The translations under genes and the position numbers were made by a program. The notes beneath the pieces are model-generated. The model was not told the origin of the DNA. It was given only the letters and a program-made list of their open reading frames with translations, and ran no database searches. A stretch of DNA of 31,729 bases from a virus (taxonomy: Duplodnaviria; Heunggongvirae; Uroviricota; Caudoviricetes), in IMG/VR virus record IMGVR_UViG_3300045988_181180. The stretch is one strand, 5' to 3'. Below are positions 3,623 through 25,951 of this stretch, one piece after another; positions within the stretch are counted from its first letter, which is position 1, and every line of letters begins with the position of its first letter.

Positions 3623-6600
3623 TTAATATGCGTGGTTCAGCTTGCGCGCTGTGTATTTGGTCGTGTAGTCACTCACCTTGTTGCCCATGGTTGAGTTATA
3701 GACCAGCAGGAACGTCGCACTGTCGCCCTGTCCCATCTCTATGTAATCTTTGTTGCCGCAGTTCTCATCGAGAATCAAAGGTAACTCCTCTTTGTTCCAT
3801 GCGTAGGAATCGCTTTTGTCTTTGATCTTGTTGCGCCCATAAATGAAGAAGTTTGTCGTGCCTGGCTCAGCGACCACCGTAAATGTCACGGCGAAGTTGG
3901 TAGATGAGCCACAGCCTAATGCGCTGCGCACCTCAGACAGTGTTGGCAGCGTTATGCCGCTTGACGAGACGTAGCTGTAGATGAGCCAGACGTTATTCTC
4001 AGAAATCTTGGCATAGCCATTATAGATGGTGTTTTTTGTGCTAAGCGCATATCTGCTATACTTATATCCACCTATCCATCCATTGAGTACGCCATTGCCA
4101 GCACCTGTGAAAGCAAAATTATAGGCACCGTTTTTAGCCGAGAGTATGGCTGCGATATTGTAACCAAGCCCCCACCAGTCGCTGCTGTCCTCATTTTCGA
4201 ATCGAGCCACCGCACGCTGTCCTGATGACGCTGGTAGTACGTTGCCACCGATGCCCGCAAAGCATTTATGGGTATCGTTGCGAAATATGATGTATGCATC
4301 ATTGGTAAATGGGTCGTTTGTCAGACCCGTGCCCTGGATAGTGAATCCAGCGATCTTGCCCGCCAATGCCTCCATGGAGCCATCTTTGTTGATTTTGAAA
4401 TTGCTGTTGGCCGTGACCACACCGTTAAGGTTGATTTGGTCTGCCGTGATGGTGGCAGAGGAGATGCCGTTGGCAATCATTGTCTTGATGGTAGCCTCGG
4501 ATAGAATCTTGCCATCGACACCCTCGATTTTTGTAGTCAGCGCATTGTAGTCTGCCGTCACAAGCAAGCCACCTTTGTTTTTGAGCGTGCCATCGGCATT
4601 GAATCGCTCGCTCATCAGGGCGTTGTAGTCAGCGGTGGTGATAAGATAGCTCGTATCTTTGAGCTTGCCATTGGCATCGAAACGAGCAACTGCCGAAGAC
4701 CACGAATCGGCGTTTTGACTGACCAACGATATAGTCGGACCATAATCGTTGCGTATGTCTGAGCCTACGCTGTCGGCGTGTCTCCTGGCTTCGGCAACGG
4801 AACTGTTGAGGGCATTGTAGTTGTCAGACATAGTCCCTTGCAAAGTGTTTTTGGCTGCATTCAGCTCGTCTTTTGTCGCAGCCTTGCCCACCGTGGTATT
4901 GATGCCATTGACCGTTATCTTTAACTCAGCGAGTGCCGCCTTGGTGCCGTTGGCAGTATTGGTGACGCTCTCGACACGTGCAGTGATGCTGTCGATGTCG
5001 GTGTAGATGCCAGAAATTTTCTCGTTTGTGCTATCCTGCCAGGTGTTGATGAGGTCGATGCGACCTGCCTCTATCTCTATTCTTGACGAGAGTGTTGTGT
5101 TGAGTTCGCCGTATCTCTTATCGACATATAGGCGTATTGCCTCTTTCTCAGCGTCCAGCTCGATGCCGAGCTGAGTTGTGGTACCATTGACCTTGTCGAT
5201 GTTTTGTCCCAGCAGCTTGATGTTTTTGGCCGTCTGAAGTATTTGTGTCGAGACGGTCTTGCTCAGGTTGTCGAGCGGCTCGTCGGTGATGGTGAGCAGC
5301 GCGACGTAGATGTCTCCTGTATATCGGAGCACGAAGTCGCCGGTGCCATTCCACTTGCCATTTAGCTCTACCGTCTGCCACTCTGCCGAGTATGGCACGC
5401 TGACGCTCTGGGCTGACAGGTCGTTGGTCTTGCCTTCGACAGCCTTGCAACCCTCGAAGCCAAAGGTGAGGGTGCCAGCAGTCTTGGCGTAGATGCGAGC
5501 ACTTATATATAAGGTGTCTTGCACCTCGGTGTAGTCATCGCCAGTGGTGTTCATGCCATCCTCGCCTTTTTCTGCCGATGGCTGGGTATATTCCTTGTGG
5601 GTACCGGGTTTGCGGATGAGATCATTGGCTTGTTTGATGCCGCTGTCCTGTATGTGCAGCATGTTGCGACCCTCGTTGTTGTCGATGCTCACTCGGTGGT
5701 TGCCACTCACGGTGGCGGCACCATTGACCATGACAGGTAAGCCATTGGCATCGACCCAGAACTGGGACTCGTCTGTATCGTCGATGGTCCAGCCATCAAT
5801 GAGCTGCTCATCGTTATAGCCTATCGCCGTCAGAAACTGACCGTTATGGAGGTAGTTGTTCTCCTCTGTCGCCTCGTAGGAGGTCTGTGCGAAGCGGGTG
5901 GCGAACTGGTTCTGCAGCATCTGTATTTTGGTGTCGATGCTCTCACCTGTGCGGCGGAGCACGAAGTCGCCCGTGGCGTAGAGGTTCTGCAGGAACTCAC
6001 CGAAGCCTGATAGTGCACCGAAGAGTGGATGGGTGATGCCCCGTAAGTTGCCGAGGCGACCTTTGAGCGCATTGTCTGGGTCTGTCTTGAGACCATAGAT
6101 GATGTCCATGTAGGGCGTATCGCTGCCCACAGTCATCATCTGTATGATGCCCTTGCGGTCGGGGTCGGTGAGGTTGTCGACCCTAACAAAAGTGTCTCGC
6201 TTGGTGATGAGCTGCTCTGCGGTGGCACCCTCCATCGATGAGGTGAAGTTCTTGAACTTGACCCATGCTAGCATATCCTCGCCACTGCCCTCGCTGCCCA
6301 CCTCTGTCACGATAAGCTCGTATCGCTTGGTGACATAGTGATTGTTTTCGGTGGAGGGCATGCCATTGTACTGCTGCACCATCACGTAGTCATCCTTGCG
6401 GAATGGGTTGTACATCCTGCCCTCGTGGGTGTCGAGATAGACCCTGCCTGTCTCTGGATCGTAGTGGTCAACCTCTAGCATCGCCGTGAAGATGCGGTTG
6501 TCATTCTCGCCCAAGAGTTGGGAGATAATCATCTCGAAGATGCGCATGGTACCACGCACGATGAGATTATCGAGCTCTAGACCATACCTATTCTCTTGCA

Positions 6601-14247: not shown

Positions 14248-14684
14248 TTTATATGTCCTTTAATGTTAGACTCGATAGCCGAGTGTTTGAAAAGTTTTTT
14301 ATAATTGTCGAATGAATATTTGAGTTTGCTCACCGTGCGCTTGTTTGTGCTCACTAGGTTGGCTCCATGTCTGCCAGAGATGCCTTCCTTGGTATTGAAC
14401 TTCAGAGAATTTCTTTTGGAGTCAACCCAAAGCCTGATGGCATCGCCTTGTATCTTGTCACCCACATTGCCATGGACGTTGAGATCTTCTCGTATTTTCT
14501 TGTCCTCTTCGTTGAGCTCAAGAGCTTCGGTGATTTCTACGGAACTATTTCGGTCTAGTTCGTATAATGTCATCTTTTTGCCCGTGATAGGTTCCTCTTT
14601 GAGTCCCTTCCACTCAGCCCTTCTGGCAATGACATCAGCTTTTTTGCCCTCTATGATTTCACCTTCTTTGATATATATAGCCAT
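14244..14684 (-). CDS. Hypothetical Lys-rich small protein (accessory operon B, gene 2)
   Basis: 146-aa ORF; its start overlaps the stop of the upstream gene at 14684. Confidence 0.5.
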   Translation of the reverse strand: MAIYIKEGEIIEGKKADVIARRAEWKGLKEEPITGKKMTLYELDRNSSVEITEALELNEEDKKIREDLNVHGNVGDKIQGDAIRLWVDSKRNSLKFNTKEGISGRHGANLVSTNKRTVSKLKYSFDNYKKLFKHSAIESNIKGHIK

Positions 14685-15112
14685 TATTGGATACTTTTTT
14701 GCATTGATTTTTCACTGAAAGAGAATACCTCAGCCATATCATCAGGCGAGGTGATGCTCATGAGCGATGGGCTGACCTCAAGAGCCACCTCAATGTCTTC
14801 AATGGAAGCATCTTTATCTTGTTTGATGATGTACTTATCCTCATGCTCTTCAATCTCTTTATCAAACTCTTCTTCGGTAATATTGCCGTCAAGCATTTCG
14901 CAATATAGTTTGAAGTAGTTGCGCTCACGTGTGCGGTTGTTAACGGCACGAGTCATCAACTCCTTGAGTCTGTCGGCAGTACTAATGTTGAAAAAGTTAG
15001 CCTTATTGGTAACACCAGCGAATGCAACCTTGCCAGTACCTTTGTCTTGTATAGCCACAACAGGGCTGCCATCAGTTTGGTATGTTGTATATATAGTCGT
15101 TGTATTGCTCAT
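14684..15112 (-). CDS. Hypothetical small protein (accessory operon B, gene 1)
   Basis: 142-aa ORF with ATG start; -7 box TATCTTTG at 15143..15150, 30 nt upstream, and a TTTG about 20 nt further upstream. Confidence 0.5.
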   Translation of the reverse strand: MSNTTTIYTTYQTDGSPVVAIQDKGTGKVAFAGVTNKANFFNISTADRLKELMTRAVNNRTRERNYFKLYCEMLDGNITEEEFDKEIEEHEDKYIIKQDKDASIEDIEVALEVSPSLMSITSPDDMAEVFSFSEKSMQKSIQ

Positions 15113-15142: not shown

Positions 15143-15150
15143 CAAAGATA
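15143..15150 (-). promoter_or_regulatory. Candidate -7 promoter box (TATCTTTG) for accessory operon B
   Basis: Plus strand TGCAAAGATA, 30 nt upstream of the ATG at 15112; a TTTG on the coding strand lies about 20 nt further upstream (plus-strand CAAA at 15171..15174). Confidence 0.5.
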
Positions 15151-15299
15151 CGGTTATTTTTTGTAAATCGCAAATTTAATGATAAATTTAACAACAAAAA
15201 TTGCAATAAAGATTGGAAAATGGTATATAAAGAATGCTCGACCGCTTTTTGGCTCTTGCCAGACGCTTTCGCCGCAGGCGAAAATTTTTGGAAAATGAG

Positions 15300-15340: not shown

Positions 15341-16024
15341 TTATAGCTTTCCTTTGTCGTGGTAGCTGTAGAAGCCATCCTCAGCCAAGATGATATGGTC
15401 CATCAAGAAAAGTCTCATCACCTCGCACGCCTTGGCTATCTTCTGCGTGAGCATATCGTCCGCCTTGCTCGGCTGCGTGCTGTTCGATGGGTGGTTGTGT
15501 GCCACGGCGATGATGGTTGCATTGTTGAGCACGGCTTCTTTCATTATCAGTCGAACGTCCACCGCTGTCTCGGTGATGCCTCCCTCGCTGAGCTTGGTGC
15601 ACTTTATCAGCCTAAAGTTTTGGTTCATCAGCACTACCCAAAAGCCCTCTGTCTCATTGCAGCCTATCATTGGGCGAAGATAGTTGTAGAGTGCCAGGCT
15701 GCTGCCTAGGTCGGTGTTTCTCGCTACCTTTTCCATTTGGTAGCGTCTGCCTAGCTCGATGGCTGCCTGTAGGGCTATCGCCTTGCAGTCTCCAATTCCT
15801 GGTACCACTTCCAGGTCTTCTATTCTCGCCTTGCCGATGTTGCGAAGCGAGTTGCCCATGATGTTATAAATCTGTCGTGCCTGCTCTTGGCTGTCCTTGG
15901 TACCTGCCCCTCTGTTGATTACCAAAGAAATCAAGTCAACGTTGGTAAGGGTGTCGAAACCTTGGTTATAGGCTCTGTACTGCGGTCTCTCCTCCATACA
16001 AAGATTGTTATAATTTTGTCTCAT
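15341..16024 (-). CDS. radC: RadC-like JAB/MPN-domain protein, full length with N-terminal helix-hairpin-helix
   Basis: 227 aa. Contains the family signature IAVAHNHPSNSTQPSKADDMLTQKI (HNHPS..PS..D) and an upstream HhH-like VPGIGDCKAIALQAAIELGRR. A hairpin terminator follows at 15300..15321. Confidence 0.8.
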   Translation of the reverse strand: MRQNYNNLCMEERPQYRAYNQGFDTLTNVDLISLVINRGAGTKDSQEQARQIYNIMGNSLRNIGKARIEDLEVVPGIGDCKAIALQAAIELGRRYQMEKVARNTDLGSSLALYNYLRPMIGCNETEGFWVVLMNQNFRLIKCTKLSEGGITETAVDVRLIMKEAVLNNATIIAVAHNHPSNSTQPSKADDMLTQKIAKACEVMRLFLMDHIILAEDGFYSYHDKGKL

Positions 16025-16039
16025 ATCTTTTGTTATTTG

Positions 16040-16564
16040 TTAGTTATACATTCTCTTTGTTCTCGCTAGGAACATCGCTCCCATCACTTGTGCGCCACAT
16101 TCGGCTAGCTCGTTGGCGAACTCTCGGGCGGTCGCTCCGCTCGTCACCACGTCGTCGAAGATGATGACTTTCTTTCCGCTGAAGTACTCTCTATCGAGTG
16201 CCACTCTGTAGTCGAAGCTCTCACACACTCTGTCTGTGCTGAAGTGCTTGGCTGTGCGCTCTCCATAGATGGAAATGTGCTCGTTTCCGTTCTGTACCTT
16301 TGCGCCTTGGCTCACCTTTTGGGCGAAGCGAGAAAAGCGCTTGGTGTACTTCTTTGAGTTGGCTGCTGGAGCGCAAACCATCACGAAGTCGCTGGCTTTG
16401 TCGCCATAGGTGTTGACGAAAGAGCTGACCACCATATCGGCAGCTGCGTCTGTCGCCCACTGCTTTCCATCCTTGAAGGCAAAGATGAAGTTTCTCACTT
16501 GCTCTGCTTGTGCTGAGCGGTCGAAACGCTTGGAGCTGTACTCGTAATAATTGAAAGTTTTCAT
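16040..16564 (-). CDS. Type I phosphoribosyltransferase-domain protein (ComF-like PRTase, lacks the ComF zinc-finger N-terminus)
   Basis: 174 aa with the PRPP-binding motif KKVIIFDDVVTSGATAREF near the C-terminus; 15 nt upstream of the radC-like gene on the same strand. Confidence 0.65.
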   Translation of the reverse strand: MKTFNYYEYSSKRFDRSAQAEQVRNFIFAFKDGKQWATDAAADMVVSSFVNTYGDKASDFVMVCAPAANSKKYTKRFSRFAQKVSQGAKVQNGNEHISIYGERTAKHFSTDRVCESFDYRVALDREYFSGKKVIIFDDVVTSGATAREFANELAECGAQVMGAMFLARTKRMYN

Positions 16565-17462
16565 ACGCTTAAAATTTTTATTCTAGCCAGAGGGAGGAAG
16601 GAGCTTTTTTATTTGAACTCGTCTTTGCCTGCCCGTCTGAGAGTTTTTTTTATTCTGTCCGTCGGTCGTTTTTGTCGCTTTTTACGGTGCGATGCAGACG
16701 AGCGGAGAAGAGGTATGAAAGCCAAGGAATTTTGCAAAAAGTTTATGGAAAACCGTCATCTCTGATTGCGGAAGGCTGCCGAAAAGTTTTTGGAAAATAG
16801 ATTTATCGGTACTTGGTGCATGCCGTCCGCCGTACCTTTGCACCCGAAAAAGAGATAATGACCGATGGATAACCGATAAAGGGAAAAGCTCTCGGACAGG
16901 AAAAGCGGGCAAAGAAAAGGCTCTGCCTTACCTTGGTGGTTAAGCCTTAGCGACGTTTGAGCGCCATCACGGTCACCACCGCTTGAAAATTCGCAAATTT
17001 TAACCCTAGCGTATGAAATGAAAGATGGAAAATTTGCGTCATCAAAAACACCATGTTTTTCAGACTTCAGGAGGAAAAACATACCTTGGAGCGATGAAAT
17101 CGCAGCATTTGGCAGGCTTCGACCCCGAGGTTGAAGATGCCAAATGTGTCGTTTTACGACAGGTTTTCCACACCCACGGATTGGAAAACCCCGATTTTAT
17201 CGTGGTTTTAGGGATTCAAAGGGAAAATAATTCCCCTTTGTCGGCGATAGCACCCCCCACCGCCCTACGCCCGAGCGCGCCTTCCGCCCCCTTGGAAAAG
17301 ACGGAATATGTAAAAGACCGTTAACGTTTTTGTAGGAATGTAAAAAGCCAAAAGGCACGAAAAAAGGGAACACGCTTCGCAGCGCACTCCCCTTATCGGC
17401 GGTCAAGCAAGAATGCCAGCCACCTAACTTATATAAGAATCGTACTATCTAAAGAAATCAAA

Positions 17463-19064
17463 CTATAGCATGGAACCCGTGGCGATGTAGCCATCAGCCT
17501 GAGGGTATTTCTCCATGCCAATCATGAGCGTGTCGTAGGCATCGGAGCCATCGGTGCGAGCCTCCAACTTATCCTCCTCGGTCTCAGCCAGCTTCTCGCC
17601 TCGCTTATCCTTCTTGCCGTTGTAGACCCCGGCCAGGCGGATGGAGATGAGCAGGTCTTCGTTGTTCTCGCTGTTGATCATCGAGCGATGCTCAGCCTTG
17701 CCGAGGAACATGCGGTTGAGCAGAAGCATCTTTTCGAGATGTCCCATCGGGTTGCCCAGATAGACCTCGTTGACATACCAGCCATGGTCGGTGAGGTAGT
17801 CGGTGATGAAGGTATGGAAGTCATCGTTCATCAGGGCGTAGTTGTTGCCCACGAAGGTGGAGTCGTAGTAGAAGTTGACCTCTTTGCACCGATGGTACTC
17901 ATAGTACTGCATGAACTTGTCGAGCAGGGCTGGCAGCTTCTCCTCATACTTCACGAAGATGCTCTTGAGGCAGCGTGCCTCGCCCCGCAGGTTGTCTTGT
18001 CCGACGGCTATCCAGTTGATGAGGGCGTTGGCATCGAAGGCGATGCAGAGCGGACGGTCGGGGTCAACGTCGGCATCCATTCTGGAATCTACATGCTTGA
18101 GCTTGTCGATGTCGTAGCCCAAGCCATCGAGGTAGGCGAGGTTGGGCGCCGTGTATAGGTTGGCATCCCTGAGGTTGGAGTAGAAGCCATCGAGCGAGAT
18201 GGAAGGTCGCTTGCACATGATGGAGGTCTGGAAGGTGAGGGCAGGGAGGTCTCGCTTCATCTGCTTGATGAACTCCATGCCGAGCACCTCGATGTTATAG
18301 ACCGATGAGTACTCTTTATAGAAGAGTGCCTTGGAGCGCAGTTGCGCCAGGAGCTGACCAATCTCTCGGAGTCGGCGCTGGGCATAGCCTGAGACATGGC
18401 CCGAGGTCTTGATGCGGTTGCGTATGTCATACTCCTCTACCACGAGCGAGGCGATGGCGTCGATGAGCTGCTGGTCGCAGTCTTTCTTGTAGTTGAGGAA
18501 CCAGGAGCCCTTCTTGGTCACGGGCATATCAGAGGTGATGAGCATGCCATGGTGGTAGTAGTGCTGGCCGAAGAGGTTGACGTTGCCTCGATTGGCAGGG
18601 AAGGTCTCGTCTTTGAGCTGTTCGAAGTTGATGAACTTCGCCTCGTCGATGTCGAGGTAGTCGAGCGAGAGGGAGTTGGAGGTACCCTTGCGGTCTTGCG
18701 AGATGATGGTACCGATGGAGCCGTTATAGAATGAGATGGTGTTCTCCCAGTTGCTGGGCGGTATGACCGGGTCGGGCCATCCCAGTTTTTTGGGAGGCTT
18801 GACCCCGATGAGATAATGCTTGCCCCGGTGGAAGCCCCATCGCTCCCAGTGCTGAAGCATCGACGGTATGGTGTTGGTGAGGCATCGCTTGGTGTTGGCG
18901 GATACGAAGCCGCCGTTGCTGCCAGGCATGCGCTGCATGTTGCGCAGGTTGAAGGTGGCGTGGAGAATGCTCTTGCCGATGCCTCGACCGCCCACGACCA
19001 CGTTGTCGCGGGCGGAGATGAGGTTGACCTCCATCTGGGCTGGGTTGAGATATTGATCTATCAT
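17463..19064 (-). CDS. Terminase large subunit
   Basis: 533 aa; Walker A VVVGGRGIGKSIL near the N-terminus and Walker B-like LDYLDIDEA; ATGA overlap with the upstream gene. Confidence 0.8.
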   Translation of the reverse strand: MIDQYLNPAQMEVNLISARDNVVVGGRGIGKSILHATFNLRNMQRMPGSNGGFVSANTKRCLTNTIPSMLQHWERWGFHRGKHYLIGVKPPKKLGWPDPVIPPSNWENTISFYNGSIGTIISQDRKGTSNSLSLDYLDIDEAKFINFEQLKDETFPANRGNVNLFGQHYYHHGMLITSDMPVTKKGSWFLNYKKDCDQQLIDAIASLVVEEYDIRNRIKTSGHVSGYAQRRLREIGQLLAQLRSKALFYKEYSSVYNIEVLGMEFIKQMKRDLPALTFQTSIMCKRPSISLDGFYSNLRDANLYTAPNLAYLDGLGYDIDKLKHVDSRMDADVDPDRPLCIAFDANALINWIAVGQDNLRGEARCLKSIFVKYEEKLPALLDKFMQYYEYHRCKEVNFYYDSTFVGNNYALMNDDFHTFITDYLTDHGWYVNEVYLGNPMGHLEKMLLLNRMFLGKAEHRSMINSENNEDLLISIRLAGVYNGKKDKRGEKLAETEEDKLEARTDGSDAYDTLMIGMEKYPQADGYIATGSML

Positions 19065-19690
19065 AGTGCTTTGTCCTCCTTGACTTCTTCTGTAGGTGTA
19101 TATTCCAAGAGCTGTTCGTCGTAGTCCTCGGCCTCGATCTTGACGAGATCCATGGAGTTGTCGGTGTATTTCTTGACGAGCTTCTTGATGGTCTGCATCA
19201 CGTTAGGGATGCGCTTGAGACCCAAGTGTCGTGGGTCGGTGGTAGGGATGAAGACCTGAGGCTGTATCTGGTCGTAGCCGTTGTCGGTAGGATCCTCTTT
19301 GTCGAGCAGGTGATATTTGCCGTATGCAGCTGCGGCGGCAGCCATGGCTCGGGCATCGCCCATGGAGTCGGCCTTGTCGTAGGTGCGCTGTATCATCTGG
19401 TCGAAGCGATAGCGGGCGAAGTCTTTTGACACTTTTTGCAGGTTGCCCAATATGAGCTTGATGAGGTGCAGGTCGTTGTAAGCCATCATGCGCTGCACCT
19501 TGTAGTCGTGCATATCTTTATAGACCAGCTCTTGGTCGCTCTTGCGAGGGTTGATGAGCCACCAGGCATAGAGGGCACGGATGCGCAAAATGCGGTCGCG
19601 CACTGGGGCGGGCACATTTTGCGCATCCATCTCTTCGGGTGTGCGGTCCATCAGTTCGATGATGGCATCGATGTTGGCGGGTTCTCTCAT
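19061..19690 (-). CDS. Hypothetical protein, terminase small subunit candidate
   Basis: 209-aa ORF translationally coupled (ATGA) to both neighbours and directly upstream of the large terminase. Function is inferred from position only. Confidence 0.45.
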   Translation of the reverse strand: MREPANIDAIIELMDRTPEEMDAQNVPAPVRDRILRIRALYAWWLINPRKSDQELVYKDMHDYKVQRMMAYNDLHLIKLILGNLQKVSKDFARYRFDQMIQRTYDKADSMGDARAMAAAAAAYGKYHLLDKEDPTDNGYDQIQPQVFIPTTDPRHLGLKRIPNVMQTIKKLVKKYTDNSMDLVKIEAEDYDEQLLEYTPTEEVKEDKAL

Positions 19691-19968
19691 ATTCTAATCT
19701 CCTCTAACATTTGGTTCAGATATTCGTGTGTGCGCTGCACCGCCTGTGGCGAGCCAGCCGCAGCCAGGTCTAGCTCGTTTTTGCGTATCTGCTGGCGCAC
19801 CGTCGCCATGCCCAAGTAATAGACACGGTGAAGCTCGGAGTCGGGCTTCAGTATCTCGTCACGCAGATCGTCCTCGCTAATATCCAAAAGGACGGACATC
19901 TCGGATATCGGAGTCAACGTCTCCGCGAAGTCTTGCACTTTTTTGAGTAATTCCTGAGAAATTTCCAT
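19687..19968 (-). CDS. Hypothetical small protein
   Basis: 93-aa ORF with ATG start; ATGA overlap with the downstream gene; 92-nt out-of-frame overlap with the upstream 191-aa ORF. Confidence 0.4.
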   Translation of the reverse strand: MEISQELLKKVQDFAETLTPISEMSVLLDISEDDLRDEILKPDSELHRVYYLGMATVRQQIRKNELDLAAAGSPQAVQRTHEYLNQMLEEIRI

Positions 19969-20452
19969 TGATTCTTAAGCTTTGAGTGTCACAATGAAGG
20001 GTATATCCGCCGAAGAGGTCGGCGAAGACCTGCGGGTCGGTGGTGATGATGGTTGACTCGTCACGGCTGCCGTAGGTCTGGTTTTGCGAGGTGACGACCG
20101 ACACGACGTGCTGGTCGTTGCGGAAGAGTGTCACCTTGGAGTGGTTTTGCCCCAGGAACACATCGTCGAAGCAGGTCTGCATCATGCGCCACAGCTGCAC
20201 GGTCTTTTTGCTCGCCTTGACATCGAGCAGCATCGTTGCCGACAGGATGCTGCCCGACTGGCGCATCAGGCGGAAGCCTCGCAGGAACTCCTCGGAGGTG
20301 GAGTAGGAAGACACCCACACATCTGCAGGGCCTATCTGGGAGAGAATCCACTTGATGAGACCGAGGGTGTGGAGGTGCCGCCCGAAGTAGGCTTGCGTCT
20401 GGGCATCGGCGATAGGACGGAGCAGGTCACTGACCTTGACCTTGGTCGGCAT
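19877..20452 (-). CDS. Hypothetical protein
   Basis: 191-aa ORF with ATG start; overlaps the upstream gene by 26 nt. Confidence 0.45.
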   Translation of the reverse strand: MPTKVKVSDLLRPIADAQTQAYFGRHLHTLGLIKWILSQIGPADVWVSSYSTSEEFLRGFRLMRQSGSILSATMLLDVKASKKTVQLWRMMQTCFDDVFLGQNHSKVTLFRNDQHVVSVVTSQNQTYGSRDESTIITTDPQVFADLFGGYTLHCDTQSLRINGNFSGITQKSARLRGDVDSDIRDVRPFGY

Positions 20453-25197: not shown

Positions 25198-25217
25198 ATA
25201 GCTATGCAATTTTCGTG

Positions 25218-25225
25218 CAAAGATA
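25218..25225 (-). promoter_or_regulatory. Candidate -7 promoter box (TATCTTTG)
   Basis: Plus strand TGCAAAGATA, 20 nt upstream of the ATG at 25197. Confidence 0.45.
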
Positions 25226-25340
25226 CAAAGAAAATTTGAAATAACTAACGATAATCGGTAAAAACTAACTTTTATCAGTAAATTTGGTGTGATATAATTT
25301 CGTCCGAAAAGTTTGTATTTTTGTATCGTACAAACAAGGC

Positions 25341-25590
25341 TCTGTAACTAGCTGATAATCAATACTATTTTTGTGATACAATTTTCTGATACAGAAATTG
25401 TAACTCTTTAGCTTTTGTAACTTGGGGTTTTGTCGAGGTCGAAGACCTGTAGGAGAAGGGGCTTGTTACAAACTTGAAAAACTTTGTAACCGAGTTGTAA
25501 CGCAACTTTGTAAACATCGGCATGGCGGCTTAACTCACTCTTTTTTAGTTATTTACCTCTTTTGCTAACATTATGTTACAGAGTTACAAA
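25341..25590. repeat. Iteron-like cluster of the octamer TTTGTAAC (4 perfect and 5 one-mismatch copies, both orientations); candidate origin or regulator-binding array
   Basis: Perfect copies at 25414..25421 (+), 25465..25472 (-), 25483..25490 (+), 25583..25590 (-). One-mismatch copies at 25341..25348, 25397..25404, 25494..25501, 25507..25514 and 25575..25582. A given 8-mer is expected about 0.008 times in 250 bp on both strands. Confidence 0.65.
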
Positions 25591-25686
25591 GGATTTGTAT
25601 AAAATAAAAGAAAGGGGTGTGGGGAAAACGATGGCACGGGGCGTGAAGGAGGTTAGAAAAGGCCCATCGAGACACCCAGGACACCC

Positions 25687-25700
25687 CCATTGGCCAATGG
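25687..25700. repeat. Perfect 14-bp palindrome CCATTGGCCAATGG
   Basis: Self-complementary 14-mer in the GC-rich part of the noncoding region between the iterons and the primase terminator. Confidence 0.6.
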
Positions 25701-25741
25701 AGGGGTAGCGAGACGAAACATCGCCCATGGCAACGAAAAAA

Positions 25742-25770
25742 GGGAGCGACGGCCAATGCGCATCGCTCCC
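25742..25770 (-). terminator. Intrinsic-type terminator downstream of the primase-helicase gene
   Basis: 8-bp perfect stem GGGAGCGA / TCGCTCCC with a 13-nt loop, followed on the minus strand by TTTTTT (plus-strand A-run 25736..25741). Confidence 0.55.
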
Positions 25771-25951
25771 TCGTAACATGGGAAAAGAATTATAAATCAG
25801 CAAAAATCTGCCTATGAAATCAGCCCTCGTCTGCTTGCAAAAATAGTGAAAAATTGCTTGAAAATTTAGCCGAAAATATTTGCATAATTCAGATATTTTT
25901 TGTACCTTTGCACTATAACTTGGGGCTATCTATTCTATTATATATGGATGG

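Follow-up and report, generated by a model that had tools for sequence, protein, structure and literature searches.

The Frpo and ssi elements of conjugative plasmids are reportedly, since the work of Masai and Arai in 1997, known as single-stranded-DNA promoters. Recognition of N4 phage early promoters requires that one of the DNA strands extrude a hairpin, and the attC sites of integrons, which adjoin mobile gene cassettes, fold strand-specifically, on the template (bottom) strand. On the side of DNA packaging, the cos region of lambda has the layout cosQ-cosN-cosB, and the cohesive ends of lambda, P2 and HK97 are typically G/C-rich and about 16 nt long. The Frpo/ssi promoters lie in the leading regions of conjugative plasmids (Samuel et al. 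2024, PMC11541004). Anti-defence genes are expressed from them ahead of synthesis of the complementary strand. For Polaribacter phage Leef_1 (Helgolandviridae), PhageTerm predicted "Cos 3'" ends (PMC8776804), a prediction left unverified by the authors.

The locus studied here may bring together elements that resemble both kinds of system. The window is the whole stretch of 31,729 nucleotides of the viral record IMGVR_UViG_3300045988_181180, a Segatella/Prevotella prophage, and the gap of about 900 bases (16565-17462) that follows its large terminase gene (TerL) is non-coding. We think that this gap is composed of four conserved non-coding modules, as a mosaic rather than a single element, and we would give a probability of roughly 0.6 to the whole four-module explanation, including both a cos site and a single-strand promoter.

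Coding potential and constraint of the gap

The window was aligned with 18 relatives (81-99% identity), and variable columns were counted per codon phase. The neighbouring genes are strongly periodic (69/35/352 for TerL, where the third-position signal is strong, 34/30/97 for the PRTase gene and 62/36/157 for the RadC gene). The phases are flat in all parts of the gap: 31/35/35 in 17462-17241, 32/35/29 in 17240-16986 and 44/42/39 in 16985-16565. Indels in the gap are mostly of 1, 2 or 4 nt, many of them not multiples of three. The view of the preliminary description that the gap holds no convincing ORF is therefore confirmed, and its suggestion of a decayed gene is rejected on these same data. 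That the gap is a frameshifted gene, or that it hides a small unannotated one, strikes us as having next to no chance of being right, even if the two candidate ORFs (99 aa, 17025..17324, plus strand; 108/119 aa, 16756..17115, minus strand) recur in the closest relatives. Both vanish in the group with 82% identity, the frame of the 119-aa ORF is without periodicity (45/48/45), and in distant relatives conserved motifs shift frame relative to one another, including those within the 99-aa ORF.

Variability in the gap is about half that of synonymous sites, so that the alignment across related phages proposed earlier as a check reveals constraint, with hairpin structure kept. In the hairpin-leader about 30% of columns are variable, against 56-69% at synonymous sites. 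The excess of TGGAAAA (5 copies for 0.27 expected) and GGAAAA (9 for 1.25) is genuine (P<2e-4). The link that had been drawn between a 12-mer of the gap and positions 25902-25913 dissolves into a chance-level match (E=1.6), and the box within the 12-mer at 25902-25913 lies outside any hairpin. Comparison of the gap with the rest of the window for long repeats or a DGR-like TR/VR pair gave chance 11-13-mers only. A blastn search of the gap against INPHARED returned a single match of 126 nt, on an unannotated faecal phage scaffold which proved to carry a homologue of the rod hairpin described below. An Rfam family, a tRNA and a pseudogene were each considered and rejected as identities for the gap, given zero Rfam and ARAGORN matches, flat phases and indels that are not multiples of three.

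Terminator, candidate cos site and hairpin array

The features on the TerL side of the gap are the following.

17463..19064, minus strand: large terminase (TerL), context gene, a 533-aa ORF whose stop codon bounds the gap
17360..17392, minus strand: intrinsic terminator for TerL transcription, with a 14-bp stem and then T6
17302..17313, no strand assigned: conserved cosQ-like box CGGAATATGTAA (TTACATATTCCG in gene direction), 31-33 nt from the putative cleavage motif
17271..17301, no strand assigned: spacer, fixed in length (31-33 nt) but not in sequence, its centre semi-conserved (GGCAATTGCC / CGACTTGCC / GCGCCTTCC)
17253..17270, no strand assigned: candidate cohesive-end sequence CCCCCCACCGCCCTACGC (GCGTAGGGCGGTGGGGGG in gene direction), with a predicted minus-strand nick between 17269 and 17268
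16986..17252, plus strand: conserved hairpin array, which always accompanies the candidate cos motif
17217-17240, 17185-17209, 17162-17190, 17148-17160 and 17117-17136, plus strand: individual folds of the array
17164-17171, plus strand: motif TTTTCCAC, conserved across lineages

TerL itself gives a weak match to phrog_2, and its tblastn matches are Microcystis, Porphyromonas and Bacteroides phage proteins annotated as large terminase subunits. An HNH nuclease adjoining the terminase was considered and rejected, as the neighbouring protein of 191 aa looks PLD-like. The stem of the terminator contains G.T wobbles that pair on the minus strand only, the plus-strand stem being broken; the minus-strand fold of 17355-17400 has -9.3 kcal/mol (DNA parameters), and relatives have an equivalent hairpin and T-run, with altered stem bases, after TerL. 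A simple terminator scan did not list 17360-17392. Transcription of the head and packaging genes would stop at this terminator, 70-100 nt past TerL.

Beyond the terminator lies a bipartite motif, which in gene direction (minus strand, 17313-17253) reads TTACATATTCCG, 31-33 nt, GCGTAGGGCRGTGGGG, and which would be the signal recognised by the terminase. We consider 17253-17313 a likely cos site with a 3' overhang of about 16 nt, the position of the nick and the overhang being predicted from sequence comparison. CGG(A/T)ATATG is invariant in 24 diverse loci, and the box stands at a spacer of 31-33 nt in 119 of 125 distinct sequences. Scanning viral loci with a 16-mer pattern gave 120 loci, 114 of them homologous (they carry the wider element). 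A TerL homologue (51-97% identity) is present in 87 of the 114, and in each of these 87, though they were found through the DNA motif alone, the motif, always in one orientation, follows the 3' end of TerL, with the 16-mer read on the strand opposite to TerL (87/87). The distance from the end of TerL to the 16-mer ranges from 128 to 3539 nt and is bimodal (under 300 nt in 42 loci, over 1200 nt in 41); loci with the larger distance have a cassette inserted. In 26 of the 27 loci that lack TerL, the sequence on the TerL side is shorter than 2.5 kb. The position of the element relative to PRTase-RadC varies, and it is always between TerL and the tail genes.

Two metagenomic assemblies bear on the nick. 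A contig of 41,942 bp (ERZ1034723 NODE-129) ends with ...TTCGGGC| right before GTAGGGCAGTGGGGGG, i.e. GGGC|GTAGGG. In another contig (L211), which is chimeric, unrelated sequence begins after ...GGGCGTAG, 4 nt beyond the point where NODE-129 ends; its foreign tail of 49 nt had no match among the other sequences compared. These are one contig end and one chimera, and assembly breaks may arise in other ways. The IMG/VR contigs of the phage under study are proviral and continue through the site. A search, via the next gene, for contigs starting on the hairpin side of cos found two truncated ones, neither of which begins at the motif. The linear record of Ingeline_1 ends 132 nt past TerL.

The closest parallel is Leef_1, whose TerL belongs to the same family (27% identity, E 3e-37) and is the last gene of its record. 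This record ends 83 nt past the TerL stop with CATATT-N34-CGTAGGCCACGGCGTTGT (its final letters are ...TTTCGTAGGCCACGGCGTTGT), so that TTTTCATATTATC stands 34 nt ahead of CGTAGG; the layout CATATT-N34-CGTAGG compares with CATATT-N35-CGTAGG in the phage studied here. The resemblance has its limits, since the sequence in common is confined to CGTAGG and CATATT and the ends of Leef_1 are a software prediction; moreover, Leef_1 is without hairpin array or cassette, and its gp01 begins 104 nt from the start of the record. Of the phages in which we looked past TerL for the CATATT/CGTAGG layout, those of Microcystis, Flavobacterium, Bacteroides BT-TP2 and Porphyromonas lack it; Leef alone has it. As in lambda, HK97 and P2, the site adjoins a terminase gene and consists of a short G/C-rich sequence conserved within a terminase family, and as in lambda a second box is found tens of bp away on the last-packaged side (cosQ-like), with a structured region opposite (a cosB-like candidate). 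Unlike in these phages, the site is downstream of TerL rather than upstream of a small-subunit gene, the probable overhang is a 3' one of about 16 nt, the accessory nuclease is PLD-like instead of HNH, and sequence similarity is absent.

It is thus the conservation of a bipartite motif at the TerL 3' end, taken together with the Leef layout and the contig that ends at the motif, that leads us to read it as cos; of the "pac or cos-type packaging site" first suggested for the gap as a whole, this is what stands, and for 17253-17313. A conserved position beside TerL would suit any terminase recognition site, and one may ask if the motif is instead a pac or other headful signal, or even a late-gene regulatory site, without cohesive ends. 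We find this improbable, because a contig of near-genome length terminates exactly at the motif, because a relative of the same TerL family has predicted Cos 3' ends at an equivalent bipartite layout, and because the G/C-richness of the motif and its length of about 16 nt are those of typical cohesive ends. With a cos site, staggered nicks would leave a G-rich 3' overhang of about 16 nt from G|GTAGGG (predicted GTAGGGCGGTGGGGGG), the second nick falling about 16-17 nt from the first, near 17252/17253, and the virion chromosome would have the hairpin side, followed by the tail genes, at its start and TerL at its end. If this assignment is true, it fixes the genome ends and the packaging signal for a large group of uncultivated human-gut Prevotella/Segatella phages. 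The 16-mer finds more than 100 related viral contigs, and could serve in genome completion, in spotting satellites that borrow the signal, and in vector design.

All close relatives have the array, whether or not they carry the cassette, and it is conserved in phages that have no rod promoter; array and rod are separable modules. Across 39 representative loci the hairpins are analogous and their sequences different, and mismatches in the array helices are more often plus-strand G.T (35) than A.C (7). The hairpins first noticed at 17117-17136, 17148-17160 and 17162-17190 do fold as described; the 9-bp stem of the last one also folds, but one subgroup of close relatives lacks it and retains no more than TTTTCCAC. 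From its position, the array may be a cosB-like region, a terminator or insulator, or a single-stranded-DNA structure; being on the tail-gene side, it may act as a terminase-binding (cosB-like) region or an insulator. Together with the array, the CATATT box and TTYCCAC are candidate cosQ or cosB elements, and proteins of 209 and 93 aa are candidates for the small terminase. A replication origin, marked by the DnaA box TTTTCCACA, had also been a conceivable reading, and the conservation of 17164-17171 across lineages would agree with it. We regard it as very improbable, given that what is conserved is a core, TTYCCAC, with varying flanks (CCACG, CCACT, CCGC, CCAT), and not the 9-mer, that this box is single rather than part of a cluster, and that an AT-rich unwinding element and nearby replication genes are absent.

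The rod hairpin and its embedded promoter

The remaining part of the gap, and the genes beside it, comprise the following.

16566..16963, plus strand: rod-like imperfect hairpin of about 400 nt, arms of about 170 bp, on the 5' side of the PRTase-RadC cassette
16813..16840, plus strand: Bacteroidota-type promoter in the 3' arm of the rod, TTG (16813-16815), N17, TACCTTTG (16833-16840)
16040-16564, minus strand: PRTase (Pfam PF00156)
15341-16024, minus strand: RadC/JAB (Pfam PF04002)

The rod is stable on the plus strand only, which is the template strand of the cassette. With RNA parameters the plus strand folds at -160.7 kcal/mol (z -7.6) and the minus strand at -111.9 (z -1.5); with DNA parameters the values are -68.9 (z -4.9) and -48.4 (z -0.6). 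The rod matches itself in reverse complement (nhmmer), and 32 of 32 homologues, from several lineages, fold better on the strand of the rod; in one group (L058) the two strands fold nearly equally well. RNAalifold gave no consensus for 11 diverse homologues, which have diverged too far for a column-wise alignment of their arms, and we have therefore relied on per-sequence folds and on a close alignment of 30 relatives. In this alignment 84% of cells are paired (43-47% when slid), both partners have changed in six pairs, and in about 20 pairs G-C or A-U has turned into G.U; helix mismatches favour plus-strand G.U (74 vs 24). As for rods elsewhere, blastn of 16562-16972 against PLSDB (72,556 plasmids) had no match, nor did blastn of the L119 rod homologue against INPHARED. 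Among Bacteroidales plasmids with ArdC, pMMCAT leaves no intergenic room upstream of this gene for a rod-like hairpin, and a Segatella hominis plasmid has no comparable rod there.

The promoter has in duplex DNA an unexpected orientation, as it reads towards the base of the stem and away from the PRTase gene. Its TTG, TA and TTTGC are invariant in 11 diverse homologues (where the spacer varies) and in the 30 close relatives, and the -7-like box that had been picked out at 16833-16840 is thus substantiated, with TA and TTTG conserved and the two bases between them variable. It is the only TAnnTTTG of the gap on the plus strand, and the minus strand has none; of the 35 boxes in the window, it alone sits in a long strand-asymmetric hairpin. 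The -33 element lies within an invariant 6-bp helix, the -7 box straddles a 4/5-nt internal loop, and the gene-proximal side consistently lacks a second copy of the -7 box. The PRTase-RadC operon, like the ArdC operons of the homologues, is encoded on the complementary strand and begins at the base of the 5' arm or inside this base. We recognised no promoter of the cassette's own, and the cassette (15341..16564, minus strand) may be driven by the rod hairpin or be linked to it. The "regulatory leader for the PRTase-radC operon" proposed earlier is therefore retained for 16565-16985, in a form that was not foreseen, with a promoter on the opposite strand inside a 400-nt hairpin.

The architecture of the rod, which is conserved, matches the Frpo layout of plasmids: one strand forms an extended, imperfectly paired hairpin a few hundred nt in length, the hexamers of a host promoter are found in its stem, the hairpin strand templates the downstream genes, and these are anti-restriction or leading-region genes (ArdC, RadC; the plasmid islands also have toxin-antitoxin genes and methylases). 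The two differ in that the rod is in a tailed dsDNA prophage beside a candidate cos site rather than beside oriT, that its promoter is of the Bacteroidota -33/-7 type and not -35/-10, and that sequence homology is absent. The N4 hairpins have stems of 5-7 bp and are used by the virion RNA polymerase, whereas the stem here has about 170 bp and motifs of the host sigma-A type. As with attC, the template strand folds beside mobile cassettes; attC sites, however, are 60-140 nt long, with R/L boxes and an IntI integrase, none of which occurs here, and the rod has a promoter embedded in it.

From the geometry we infer that the promoter may fire from single-stranded DNA. The leader belongs to the mobile cassette, and its gene-distal arm bears all the elements of a host promoter, TTG-N17-TAnnTTTG; the plus strand, once single-stranded and folded, would make this promoter double-stranded and pointing down the stem, and the contiguous plus strand would then template PRTase-RadC. 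Our tentative generalisation, which we advance as a possibility somewhat short of an even chance, is that temperate tailed phages of Bacteroidota (Prevotella/Segatella and others) have portable anti-defence cassettes beside cos, driven by a Frpo-like promoter active on single-stranded DNA only. If this is true, expression of the cassette would be coupled to a single-stranded state of the DNA (candidates being end resection at entry, replication intermediates and nuclease attack), and the promoter would be the first of its kind outside conjugative elements and the first on the Bacteroidota -33/-7 type. It would also define a promoter architecture for Bacteroidota, with ArdC/RadC/PRTase cassettes moving between phage lineages, and it raises a testable question, namely whether phage counter-defence expression is coupled to single-stranded DNA. 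Two points complicate the idea: tailed phages inject duplex DNA, so there is no known step that exposes the plus strand as a single strand, and the cassette is found on either side of cos, so a simple model of resection from one end misfits some lineages.

The promoter is canonical for Bacteroidota and conserved, and it could simply work in duplex DNA, firing rightwards to give a transcript, non-coding or antisense, that stops within the hairpin array (the T-tract hairpin 17185-17212 could terminate it), with the cassette expressed by read-through or from an unrecognised promoter, and the palindrome being a relic of an inverted duplication or a platform for protein binding. An inverted duplication would explain why, in L119-type loci, the distal arm resembles the opening stretch (about 100 nt) of the first gene. 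We nevertheless think this explanation rather unlikely. A relic or a duplex binding site predicts no asymmetry between G.T and A.C, and the compensatory and wobble changes keep the pairing of one strand, in 32/32 homologues; the leader varies in only about half the proportion of columns found at synonymous sites; the -7 box copy is consistently missing near the genes; and the array that would end the transcript is conserved even where the rod promoter is absent.

The asymmetry of mismatches in both array and rod, the rod z-score of -7.6 with RNA parameters and the GNRA-like plus-strand loops of some hairpins beside the 16-mer might speak for a plus-strand transcript, a large structured non-coding RNA that runs across the hairpins and is antisense to the flanking genes. 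This, too, had been put forward in the preliminary description, and we now hold it to be a poor prospect, though the plus strand does fold best. Rfam covariance models gave no match in the window at the gathering score and none in 16400-17600 even at E<=10, and ARAGORN found no tRNA or tmRNA. The sole conserved plus-strand promoter is inside the 3' arm of the rod, so that its transcript would lack the 5' arm and cannot hold both; a TAnnTTTG at 16295, inside the PRTase gene, which would be a candidate start for an RNA spanning the rod, is not conserved; the cassette genes to the left differ between lineages, which makes a common upstream promoter unlikely; and array and rod are separable.

A Frpo-like leader that belongs to a mobile cassette remains the reading we prefer, and the distribution of the cassette can be described in this light. 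The rod travels with PRTase-RadC here and with ArdC cassettes elsewhere, the content across loci being ArdC/PRTase/RadC/MutS-I; PADLOC gives ShosT (1.6e-9) and PsyrT (9e-9) on the cassette of the window. Cassette and leader are missing together from many close relatives, and in a distant group the cassette is on the other side of cos. Relatives without the cassette have an ordinary minus-strand TAnnTTTG box ahead of their next gene, and the next gene of the window has ordinary boxes at 15143 and 15171.

Modular organisation of the intergenic region

The region at 16565-17462, around which every gene lies on the minus strand, most likely holds a terminator for TerL, a cos site, a block of hairpins linked to cos, and a promoter that is embedded in a hairpin and belongs to a mobile, anti-defence-like cassette:

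15341..16024 (-), RadC/JAB protein, following PRTase
16040..16564 (-), phosphoribosyltransferase (PRTase), following the gap
16566-16963 (+), "rod" hairpin with arms of ~170 bp, travelling with the cassette
16833-16840 (+), TAnnTTTG box in the 3' arm of the rod, the sole such box in the gap
17255-17270, 16-mer CCCCACYGCCCTACGC, common to close and distant groups
17302-17313, second box CGG(A/T)ATATGTAA, common to close and distant groups
17392-17360 (-), terminator hairpin (14-bp stem, then T6) between TerL and cos
17463..19064 (-), TerL (large terminase, 533 aa), preceding the gap

MAGs of Segatella copri and Prevotella carry TerL relatives, as do 72 IMG/VR loci and 76 metagenome loci, and on this basis the element is a prophage of gut Prevotellaceae.

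The preliminary description found no convincing ORF here, and this is borne out once the window is aligned to 18 relatives (81-99% identity) and variable columns are counted by codon phase: these are 69/35/352 in TerL, 34/30/97 in PRTase and 62/36/157 in RadC, versus flat counts across the parts of the gap (31/35/35, 32/35/29 and 44/42/39). Indels of 1, 2 and 4 nt are numerous in the gap, its recurrent 99-aa and 119-aa ORFs are missing from the 82%-identity group, and its conserved motifs change frame in distant relatives. Since only 30-45% of gap columns vary, versus 56-69% at third codon positions, the region is non-coding but constrained: it is a real feature, with no gene. The proposal of a structured RNA found no match in Rfam (covariance models) or with ARAGORN.

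The part at 16986-17462 is kept in all close relatives, and phages devoid of PRTase-RadC have other sequence left of ~16985 (~17090 in one subgroup). In the distant group, whose TerL is 52% identical, some 180 nt forming the core of this conserved part are located downstream of RadC, not upstream of PRTase. The replaceable left part and the relocated core thus make the gap a set of separable units.

Folding agrees with the three hairpins described earlier, and the repeat excess is real (5 TGGAAAA versus 0.27 expected, 9 GGAAAA versus 1.25), whereas the 12-mer shared with 25902 is a chance-level match. The TGGAAAA excess is largely accounted for by structures, because the 3' arm, rich in purines (GGAAAA), forms G.T pairs with a T-rich 5' arm, the complement of which gives a 5' UTR rich in A. 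The 17162/17190 stem accounts for two copies, one per arm; that at 17293 falls in the cos spacer, whose sequence varies, and lacks conservation.

A candidate cos site and its surroundings

The terminator was absent from the output of a simple terminator scan; relatives retain the hairpin despite altered stem bases, and its G.T wobbles pair on the minus strand only. Beyond it lies the 16-mer, matched by at least 120 loci in a pattern scan of IMG/VR, a selection by DNA motif in which no protein was used. The second box is found at a fixed 31-33 nt in 114 of those listed, with a spacer of varying sequence and with hairpins on the other side of the 16-mer. Among these listed matches, 87 of 114 carry a TerL homologue, and in 87/87 the 16-mer is on the strand opposite TerL, 128-3539 nt from its end. 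This distance is bimodal (<300 nt in 42 loci, >1200 nt in 41), the latter 41 having an inserted cassette; 26 of the 27 listed loci lacking TerL have less than 2.5 kb of DNA on the TerL side. The order, in gene direction, is TerL stop, terminator, TTACATATTCCG, N31-33, GCGTAGGGCRGTGGGG, hairpins, next gene. A 16-mer variant, CCCCACCGCCCTGCGC (A to G), exists in loci L029, L035, L039, L040, L045 and L049, so the exact-pattern scan undercounts carriers.

Among cultured phages with a related TerL, Polaribacter phage Leef_1 has this gene in last position, and its record stops 83 nt beyond it, at ...TTTTCATATTATC-N-TTTCGTAGGCCACGGCGTTGT; the CATATT-CGTAGG distance is 34 nt there and 35 nt in the window. 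The "Cos 3'" ends of Leef_1 are a PhageTerm prediction, not verified experimentally by its authors (PMC8776804). The linear deposit of Cellulophaga phage Ingeline_1 likewise stops at a G/C-rich junction, 132 nt past its TerL. A 41,942-bp metagenome contig (about genome length) stops at ...GGCTTCGGGC, exactly before GTAGGGCAGTGGGGGG, an end that trimming of a 3' overhang during library preparation would give; in a second contig, unrelated sequence begins after ...GGGCGTAG. We therefore consider 17253-17313 to be probably the cos core (roughly 0.7). The earlier suggestion of a pac or cos-type packaging site is retained for this segment, on the strength of the link to TerL, the Leef_1 layout and the contig end; the rest of the gap belongs to other modules. 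Cos sites are commonplace elements, and the novelty here would lie in the phage group.

Next to cos, at 16986-17252, several hairpins are present in every lineage, with differing sequences and a constant layout, including a long stem with internal AAAAC/GTTTT and the motif TTYCCAC. Single mismatches in these helices are G.T rather than A.C on the plus strand (35 versus 7; ~20 versus 6 without the close group), implying that it is the strand opposite the genes on which the structures are read. The array may act as a binding region of cosB type, may be a terminator/insulator where cargo genes run the opposite way (as they do in some relatives), or may have a role connected with ssDNA.

In the distant group, a palindrome, GGCAATTGCC, flanks the CATATT box (CGGWATATGTAA) on both sides (L058-L073 and many of loci L074-L193); that lineage may use it as an operator or binding site of its own. 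Upstream of TerL, a 191-aa protein (19877-20452, -) has a PLD-like HxK...D / SQN motif, instead of being the HNH protein first considered, and may assist cleavage at cos as an accessory nuclease. Further ORFs follow at 19687-19968 (-) and 19061-19690 (-), and the order PLD-like, ~93 aa, ~209 aa, TerL recurs in Flavobacterium, Bacteroides BT-TP2 and Porphyromonas phages (the counterpart in Flavobacterium laban6-1, gp33, is PF13091).

The rod hairpin and its promoter

The rod matches its own reverse complement (nhmmer), and it folds better on the plus strand than on the minus, both with RNA parameters (-160.7 kcal/mol, z -7.6, versus -111.9, z -1.5) and with DNA parameters (-68.9, z -4.9, versus -48.4, z -0.6). 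Searches with nhmmer also located it ahead of PRTase homologues of 183 aa from another phage lineage, and its centre ahead of other operons. The plus-strand equivalent folds at least as well as the other strand in 32/32 homologues, whose helix mismatches are 74 G.T versus 24 A.C. Among 30 close relatives, 84% of cells are paired (43-47% in slid controls), 6 pairs are altered on both sides and ~20 are switched between G-C/A-U and G.U.

Within the rod, TTG, TA and TTTGC are invariant around a variable 17-nt spacer in 11 diverse homologues, and TTG-N17-TAnnTTTG corresponds to the -33/-7 promoter pattern of Bacteroidota. In the 30 close relatives the -33 element lies within an invariant 6-bp helix and the -7 box across a small internal loop. 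The window has 35 TAnnTTTG boxes (12.8 expected), with several minus-strand genes preceded by one, and only that at 16833-16840 is inside a long strand-asymmetric hairpin. The cassette's own (minus) strand has no such box in the gap; cassette-less relatives have an ordinary minus-strand box at the corresponding place.

The idea of a regulatory leader for the PRTase-radC operon thus survives in part: the rod and its conserved promoter travel with the cassette, but in duplex DNA this promoter, being on the opposite strand, is directed away from PRTase. If the plus strand were folded, the promoter would point along the stem towards its base, with the plus strand running on uninterrupted as the PRTase-RadC template. 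A plus-strand RNA containing both arms of the rod is unlikely: the one promoter that is conserved sits within the rod, the TAnnTTTG box at 16295 in PRTase lacks conservation, and different lineages have different genes on the left. For the single-strand reading, we know of no ssDNA stage in any tailed phage, and the cassette occurs on either side of cos; candidate steps that would expose the plus strand are end resection, replication intermediates and cruciform extrusion. The layout in the folded plus strand is the one that Frpo/ssi single-strand promoters show in the leading regions of plasmids (PMC11541004). By blastn, the rod matched nothing in PLSDB, and an L119 homologue of it matched nothing in INPHARED. 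The promoter architecture of the rod, a candidate variant of known single-strand promoters, merits experiment.

The unannotated faecal phage scaffold MT836929.1 has a rod homologue with a TACCTTTG box and a partial second copy ~1 kb off (4960-5133 and 6019-6120), so a genome can hold more than one copy of the element. The window contains another long intergenic region (25210-25951, ~740 nt), with six TAnnTTTG boxes on both strands; that at 25903, within the shared 12-mer, is outside any long hairpin. Ordinary minus-strand boxes at 15143-15150 and 15171-15178 lie just upstream of a 142-aa gene (14684-15112), which gives the genes on the tail side a conventional promoter of their own, past the cassette.

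Genes linked to the leader

The PRTase matches the PADLOC models ShosT (1.6e-9) and PsyrT (9e-9). Operons behind homologous leaders encode ArdC (PF08401 plus zincin peptidase), PRTase, RadC and a MutS-domain-I protein, and ArdC- and RadC-type genes are known from plasmid leading regions; on this comparison, the linked genes fit an Frpo/ssi-like picture. Together with PRTase-RadC they look like a mobile anti-restriction island.

In other lineages (loci L119, L100, L123, L171 and L077), genes downstream of the same leader encode a conserved 74-aa protein (MT..VQTS..YEVEADS..DITYIEVY), an ~85-aa protein, ArdC, PRTase or a MutS-domain-I-only protein. In the cultured Flavobacterium phages 6H (4215-6278) and laban6-1 (5232-6311), an island on the opposite strand directly after TerL carries ArdC-N/ssDNA-binding, DUF932, N6-methylase and SymE genes, another anti-defence-like island by the terminase end.
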